From sequence record NC_054924.1: a DNA stretch of 64,000 nt; one strand, given 5' to 3'. Source of the DNA: Escherichia phage vB_EcoM_Lutter. A program made the translations under genes and the position numbers. The notes under the pieces are model-generated. The model saw nothing but the letters and a program-made list of their open reading frames with translations. It did no database searches and was not told the origin of the DNA. Positions within the stretch are counted from its first letter, which is position 1, and each line of letters opens with the position of its first letter. Shown piece by piece: positions 43,110 to 43,565 of this stretch.

Positions 43110-43565
43110 TTATTTTAAATCATCTGCCCAATCAAGTTTAAGAGGCTCTTTATATTCACGATCTAATACGACCGGAATTTGTACATCACCGCTAAATGAT
43201 AAGGGCCCAACATTATAAGACAATGTTATATGCGGTGTGTAATCATCAAAATCATGTGTAGCACCTAGTGCCCGCGCATACATGTGTCGACAGCGCAGAT
43301 ATTCAGAATCTAGCACAAGTACAAGAGTCGATCCATCTTGTGTTTTCCATACTTCTAAATGTCCAGAAGAAGCTACTTCAAAACTTCCACTCGATGGAAC
43401 ATATGGAACATTTACTCTTGAATAACATATAGTTGAATGAATTTTTTCTCTAGGAACTGGATTAGGAACACGTAAAGAGCGCTGAAGTTCTTCCAGCGCA
43501 TCAAGTGTTAATTCTGAAAACTTAGCTGCTACATAAAGACCCGTTGAAAAGTCTTTAAATTCCAT
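43110..43565 (-). CDS. 57B: gp57B-type 2H phosphoesterase (Acb1 anti-CBASS family)
   Basis: 151 aa; two H-x-T motifs (KIHSTICY and TPHITLSY); immediately downstream of 57A. Confidence 0.7.

Follow-up and report, generated by a model that had tools for sequence, protein, structure and literature searches.

The 2H enzymes include LigT as well as the anti-CBASS protein Acb1, whose founding member is the product of gene 57B of phage T4. Starting from T4-infected cells, Hobbs et al. 2022 (PMC9117128) purified the activity that degrades 3'3'-cGAMP, found gene 57B to be its source, and named the product Acb1 (NP_049750.1). The structure of Acb1 from Erwinia phage FBB1 showed a 2H phosphoesterase fold, with a tetrad of H44, T46, H113, and T115 beneath the scissile phosphate and residues 145-152 forming a lid above the ligand. 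Acb1 cleaved 3' of adenosine in a metal-independent reaction of two steps via a cyclic phosphate, and the H44A/H113A mutant showed no activity (Hobbs 2022, PMC9117128). In the same study, hosts carrying CBASS operons were challenged with wild-type T4 and with T4 without acb1 (Fig. 4e-f). In an independent transposon screen, 57B/acb1 was dispensable on K-12 and depleted on a CBASS-expressing host.

LigT-type enzymes and the viral 2H phosphodiesterases surveyed by Doherty et al. 2025 share with Acb1 the paired H-x-T/S motifs and a metal-independent transesterification via a 2',3'-cyclic phosphate. Acb1 differs from these other 2H enzymes in its compact size (~150 aa), in its closing C-terminal lid, and in its specificity for 3'-5' cyclic oligonucleotides, which it cuts 3' of adenosine. 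The DNA next to acb1 also has a described counterpart, the PeSL (promoter-early stem-loop) cassettes of T4-like phages (Arbiol 2010; Comeau 2014), whose promoter consensus in the PST/T4 group is TTTACW N17 TAYWAT. PeSL elements have been noted before at T-even internal-protein loci, and the adjacency of Acb1 and the internal protein IPI in T4 was already pointed out by Hobbs et al. 2022 (PMC9117128).

We analyzed a stretch of 64,000 nucleotides from Escherichia phage vB_EcoM_Lutter (NC_054924.1), referred to below in its full length as the window. The ORF listing of the window showed an ATG-initiated ORF of 151 aa plus stop at 43110-43565 on the minus strand. The translation was identical to residues 2-152 of T4 57B/Acb1 at all 151 of 151 positions, and within the gene the DNA differed from T4 by three synonymous changes only. 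Just upstream of the gene, a further G-to-A change turns the annotated first ATG of T4 into ATA, so that the copy studied here begins at the second Met of T4 and its residue numbers equal those of T4 minus one. This suggests that translation of 57B may in fact begin at the second ATG in T4 as well. Read across both genes at 43563-43568, the ATG ATG of the T4 57B start appears as ATA ATG, and the stop codon of gene 57A is TAA instead of TGA.

The protein matched the Pfam family Acb1 (PF23474) at E 2.6e-60, scoring 202.7 bits where the cutoff is 27, with residues 8-149 covering profile positions 1-144 of 144, and no Pfam family besides Acb1 matched it at E <= 0.1. The best match among solved structures was the FBB1 Acb1 pair 7T26/7T27 at about E 4e-62 (7T26_A, 4.1e-62), and in the alignment with 7T26, which pairs 141 residues and contains a single gap of one residue, the identity was 68%. 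FBB1 Acb1 lined up with the protein at both HxT motifs and in the C-terminal lid region; the differences comprised the other phage and host, about a third of the residues, and a crystal construct without the first residues. Homology to 7T26 settles the predicted 2H phosphoesterase fold. An AlphaFold2 single-sequence model of the 151-aa protein was poor, with a mean pLDDT of 37.9 and a pTM of 0.30.

The first-pass annotation, made from the letters of the window, had noted two paired motifs in the 151-aa protein that follows 57A and had read them as an Acb1-type 2H phosphoesterase, leaving the strand unstated. Both motifs were found in the minus-strand translation, KIHSTICY at residues 41-48 and TPHITLSY at residues 110-117. 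A regex scan for H-x-[ST] hit the protein at residues 43 (HST) and 112 (HIT) and nowhere else. The first catalytic motif, H43-S44-T45 (H44/T46 in T4 numbering), is encoded at 43431-43439 on the minus strand by the codons cat tca act, and the second, H112-I113-T114 (H113/T115 in T4 numbering), at 43224-43232 on the minus strand by cat ata aca. In the alignment with 7T26, H43 paired with the H of KLHTT and the H112 motif paired with PHITLSY, and the HxT/HxT tetrad of T4 (H44, T46, H113, and T115) was present as H43/T45 and H112/T114. The alignment to T4 Acb1 that had been suggested as a check likewise placed both histidines at the catalytic positions. The identity with T4 57B and the position of both histidines at the catalytic histidines of 7T26 confirm, at the level of aligned residues, that the two-motif observation is far beyond chance.

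The C-terminal eight residues, LDWADDLK (43113-43136, minus strand), would be equivalent to the substrate lid of Acb1. This assignment maps the description of the FBB1 Acb1 lid (residues 145-152) onto the protein, with the numbering shifted by +1. The PeSL repeat covers the final four codons of the LDWADDLK stretch.

Compared with its T4 counterpart, the locus agreed in all 151 residues, in the upstream neighbors gene 1 and 57A, and in a PeSL element directly after the stop codon, and it differed in the extra first ATG of T4, in the three synonymous bases, and in the downstream gene, which is ipI in T4 and ip5 here. A tblastn search matched the protein in 1469 records overall; in 497 phage records the identity was at least 99%. 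Shigella phage KRT47 (Tequatrovirus ime09) shared 99.0% identity with the surrounding 2.1 kb, which was at least 95% identical in about 500 T-even genomes, and the gene order around acb1 showed synteny with T4 and KRT47. The window is from a Tequatrovirus ime09-like phage. The aligned sequences fully support the reading that the ORF encodes T4 Acb1, the founding member, itself and not a mere homolog.

Since the protein is identical to T4 Acb1, the published mechanism and role transfer to it directly. It would act as a 2H phosphodiesterase in which H43/T45 and H112/T114 carry out metal-independent acid-base catalysis. The adenosine 2'-OH would attack the adjacent 3'-5' phosphodiester and give a 2',3'-cyclic phosphate intermediate. 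The CBASS effectors would then never be activated, and the phage would escape abortive infection. On the evidence of T4 identity, Pfam PF23474, and PDB 7T26, we are close to certain that the coding sequence at 43110-43565 (minus strand) is acb1 (gene 57B) of a T4-like phage, encoding an anti-CBASS 2H phosphodiesterase and probably closing a gene 1-57A-57B unit as its final cistron. No observation spoke against the enzyme assignment. The checks proposed with the first-pass annotation (alignment to T4 Acb1, cleavage assays, and histidine mutants) have in effect all been published already.

The public records of this gene carry a different name. Orthologs, the RefSeq entry of T4 included, are mostly labeled 'RNA ligase' or 'hypothetical protein', and few ortholog records say 'anti-CBASS protein Acb1' or 'phosphodiesterase'. 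Taken at its word, the common label would make the protein an RNA ligase or an RNA-repair 2H enzyme, such as a LigT-like 2'-5' ligase or a cyclic phosphodiesterase, with RNA ends rather than immune signals as its target, one possibility being the repair of tRNAs close to the phage tRNA cluster. The description of PHROG 755 reads 'RNA ligase', RefSeq gives the same label to T4 57B and to many of its orthologs, and the tRNA cluster lies about 2 kb from acb1. However, the name is a homology transfer older than the functional tests, whereas the identical protein was isolated from T4-infected cells by following its cGAMP-degrading activity, and T4 with and without acb1 was compared on CBASS hosts (Hobbs 2022, PMC9117128). 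The depletion of the gene in the transposon screen was confined to the CBASS-expressing host, the Pfam family bears the name Acb1, and no report of ligase activity of Acb1/57B was found in the literature examined. We therefore consider an RNA ligase or RNA-repair enzyme very improbable, and Acb1 may have a minor second activity on RNA 2',3'-cyclic ends. With the anti-CBASS phosphodiesterase as the preferred reading, the label 'RNA ligase' in RefSeq and PHROG means that automated annotation would mislabel a proven anti-defence gene.

The tRNA cluster itself (39910-41123) contained 8 tRNAs and no tRNA-Gln. A 210-aa ORF (41130-41762, minus strand) sits at the position that tRNA-Gln takes in T4 and KRT47, and it showed an HNH-like motif with a Pfam HNH match at E 0.005, below the family cutoff. 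A 161-aa ORF with no assigned family (40252-40737, minus strand) lies between tRNA-Ser and tRNA-Met. The arrangement at 40200-41900 was found with at least 80% coverage in only 6 of 669 matching phage records. By analogy with segB in T4, the 210-aa and 161-aa ORFs look like free-standing homing-endonuclease insertions.

To the upstream side of acb1 lie gene 57A, the tail fiber chaperone (43565-43807, minus strand; Pfam GP57, E 5e-51), and gene 1, the dNMP kinase (43807-44520, minus strand; Pfam DNMK, E 6.5e-104). Both junctions showed a TAATG overlap. At 43565 the TAA stop of 57A and the ATG of acb1 share one base, and at 43807 the TAA stop of gene 1 and the ATG of 57A share one base. Such overlaps in the sequence are the signature of a co-transcribed, translationally coupled gene 1-57A-57B unit. 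We then looked at promoter-like sites, and the account of acb1 transcription given here is based on motif matches and the T4 literature. A pattern scan for TGCTTNA N11-13 TANNNT returned 18 sites in the window where 5.0 were expected, and most of these sites are on the minus strand. Among them is a MotA-box middle-promoter-like site (TGCTTCA, 11 nt, TATAAT) at 44546-44569 on the minus strand, the nearest promoter-like site upstream of the chained genes. It lies 26 nt before the start of gene 1, and both its Mot box and its -10 are kept in T4. We infer that the 1-57A-57B unit is most likely driven by this site.

Further MotA-type sites were present at 44042-44065 and at 41821-41845, both on the minus strand. 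One of the 18 sites is found just before the tRNA cluster region, in a stretch for which a middle promoter has been reported in T4. The T4 records NC_000866 and AF158101 list no promoter annotation. A candidate late-promoter-like motif, TATAAATA, was found inside gene 1 and upstream of 57A/57B (44163-44170, minus strand), and the TATAAATA late motif was not enriched in the window, with 13 occurrences against 10.8 expected. In a 2026 preprint, expression of T4 57B/acb1 is described as predominantly middle/late. We propose that acb1 would be transcribed and translated as the last cistron of the gene 1-57A-57B unit, with transcription probably beginning at the MotA-dependent middle promoter before gene 1 and possibly having an additional late start inside gene 1.

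A different arrangement had been put forward in the first-pass annotation, in which 57A, 57B, and an ipI-like internal-protein gene form one early unit driven by a promoter at 43067-43095. All three genes are on the same strand, and the site is a good match to a T4 early-type promoter (TTTACA N17 TACTAT with an upstream TG). However, this promoter, placed at 43068-43096 in our analysis, fires toward lower coordinates from about 43060, and 57A and 57B (43807 to 43110) lie entirely upstream of it. Because it stands between the 57B stop (43110) and the ip start (43037), it can drive only the ip gene, trna.4, and beyond. A strong hairpin lies between 57B and the ip gene, 57B overlaps 57A just as 57A overlaps gene 1, and the promoter belongs to a repeated PeSL cassette with a second copy after the ip gene. 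The middle/late expression described for T4 57B in the preprint also speaks against an early start. The early three-gene operon was excluded by this geometry, with the promoter downstream of both 57A and 57B, and we regard an early unit of this kind as vanishingly unlikely. The TAATG chain instead joins acb1 to 57A and gene 1. Overall, the first-pass interpretation was partly supported: the enzyme call was right, the promoter and operon were wrong, and the label of an anti-restriction-type neighbor was unsupported.

The promoter in question is one of two known PeSL cassettes that bracket a swappable ip gene. The first copy (43057-43125, minus strand) lies between the acb1 stop and ip5 and combines the promoter with a 10-bp perfect stem. 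The second copy (42727-42795, minus strand) lies between ip5 and trna.4 and carries the same promoter (42766 to 42738) and a stem-loop. The two copies form a direct repeat of 69 nt with 83% identity and a spacing of 330 nt. The first-copy promoter (43096 to 43068; TTTACA N17 TACTAT, upstream TG) is located in the 72-nt gap between 57B and ip5, and both promoters fit TTTACW N17 TAYWAT, each combined with a stem-loop. The stem of the first copy is a 10-bp perfect inverted repeat (43058-43067 and 43078-43087), and the inverted repeat of the second copy (42730-42761) has 13-nt arms that are 85% complementary. As RNA, the hairpins were predicted at -17.4 kcal/mol (z -4.0) for the first copy and -18.8 kcal/mol (z -3.2) for the second. 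No T run follows the PeSL hairpin, and an intrinsic-terminator scan did not flag it.

A generic sigma70 scan of 42400-46200 found 14 sites against 14.6 expected and was uninformative alone; the PeSL promoters stand out only because of the repeat and an extended 19-nt motif. This 19-nt core, TTTCACAAAGTTGTTTACA, occurred in five copies in the window (3 mismatches or fewer) against 0.09 expected. Three more copies of TTTCACAAAGTTGTTTACA beyond the pair at the ip gene, with 0-2 mismatches and all on the minus strand, are at 9788-9806, 22486-22504, and 38514-38532. Just upstream of the copy at 38514 is a 157-aa ORF (38690-39163), whose N-terminus, MKSYTQFLNEAVLNE, resembles another internal-protein targeting peptide.

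In the alignment with T4, 57A, 57B, and both PeSL copies were near-identical, while the T4 gene between the PeSL copies was unrelated to ip5 apart from its first ~50 bases. The agreement with the cassettes of Arbiol and Comeau covers the consensus promoter, the stem-loop, and the pair bracketing a variable ip gene. The arrangement here has the further feature that the repeat reaches into the coding sequences, taking in the stop codon and the four codons before it in acb1 (DDLK*) and likewise in ip5 (EDLK*), and is otherwise in no way notable.

We characterized the gene in the bracketed slot as ip5, an internal head protein gene of 85 aa (42780-43037, minus strand; PHROG 3499, E 1e-49). Its product was 100% identical to RB15 Ip5 and to phage PST IpV, and database searches found no Pfam relative and no PDB relative. 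The slot is occupied differently elsewhere: the number of different ip genes in it ranges from one to four among related phages, with two in JLBYU24 and four (Ip5, Ip9, Ip7, and Ip8) in RB15. Polymorphism of the T-even IP locus was reportedly described by Repoila in 1994.

In T4, IPI (IPI*) is an injected inhibitor of GmrSD restriction, and the first-pass annotation had called the neighbor here ipI-like and paired an anti-restriction-type internal protein with the anti-CBASS enzyme. BLASTP aligned residues 1-22 of Ip5 with residues 1-26 of T4 IPI only (E 1e-4). The two proteins have in common an N-terminal capsid-targeting peptide (MKTFKEFATKTTITE vs MKTFKEFTSTTTPVSTITE) that ends in I/L-x-E, which we take to be the prohead-protease cleavage motif. 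Ip5 resembles T4 IPI in this peptide (MKTFKEF...TITE) and in its genomic slot, but the mature part of Ip5 is unrelated. Because the match is limited to the targeting peptide, the GmrSD-inhibiting part of IPI is absent from Ip5. We rejected Ip5 as an ortholog of IPI, since the BLASTP alignment ends by residue ~26 and the mature chain has no homology to IPI*. The pairing of an anti-restriction-type protein with Acb1 consequently found no support for this phage.

A broader idea concerns the slot itself, which might be a swap-in position for injected anti-defence proteins, with Ip5, present here in place of the GmrSD inhibitor IPI, being injected and inhibiting another host defence. We offer this tentatively and consider it rather unlikely. 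If true, the two would make up a small anti-defence island in which Acb1 stays in place and the ip gene is exchanged, and the joints of recombination would be marked by the PeSL repeat where it enters the last four codons of each gene.

For acb1, the finding is already known in full, as the gene, the mechanism, the structure class, the CBASS role, and the position beside the internal-protein locus were published in 2022 for the identical protein. Resistance of the phage to CBASS types using 3'3'-cGAMP, cUA, or cAAA as signals would be expected, and this expectation is relevant to the prediction of its host range.
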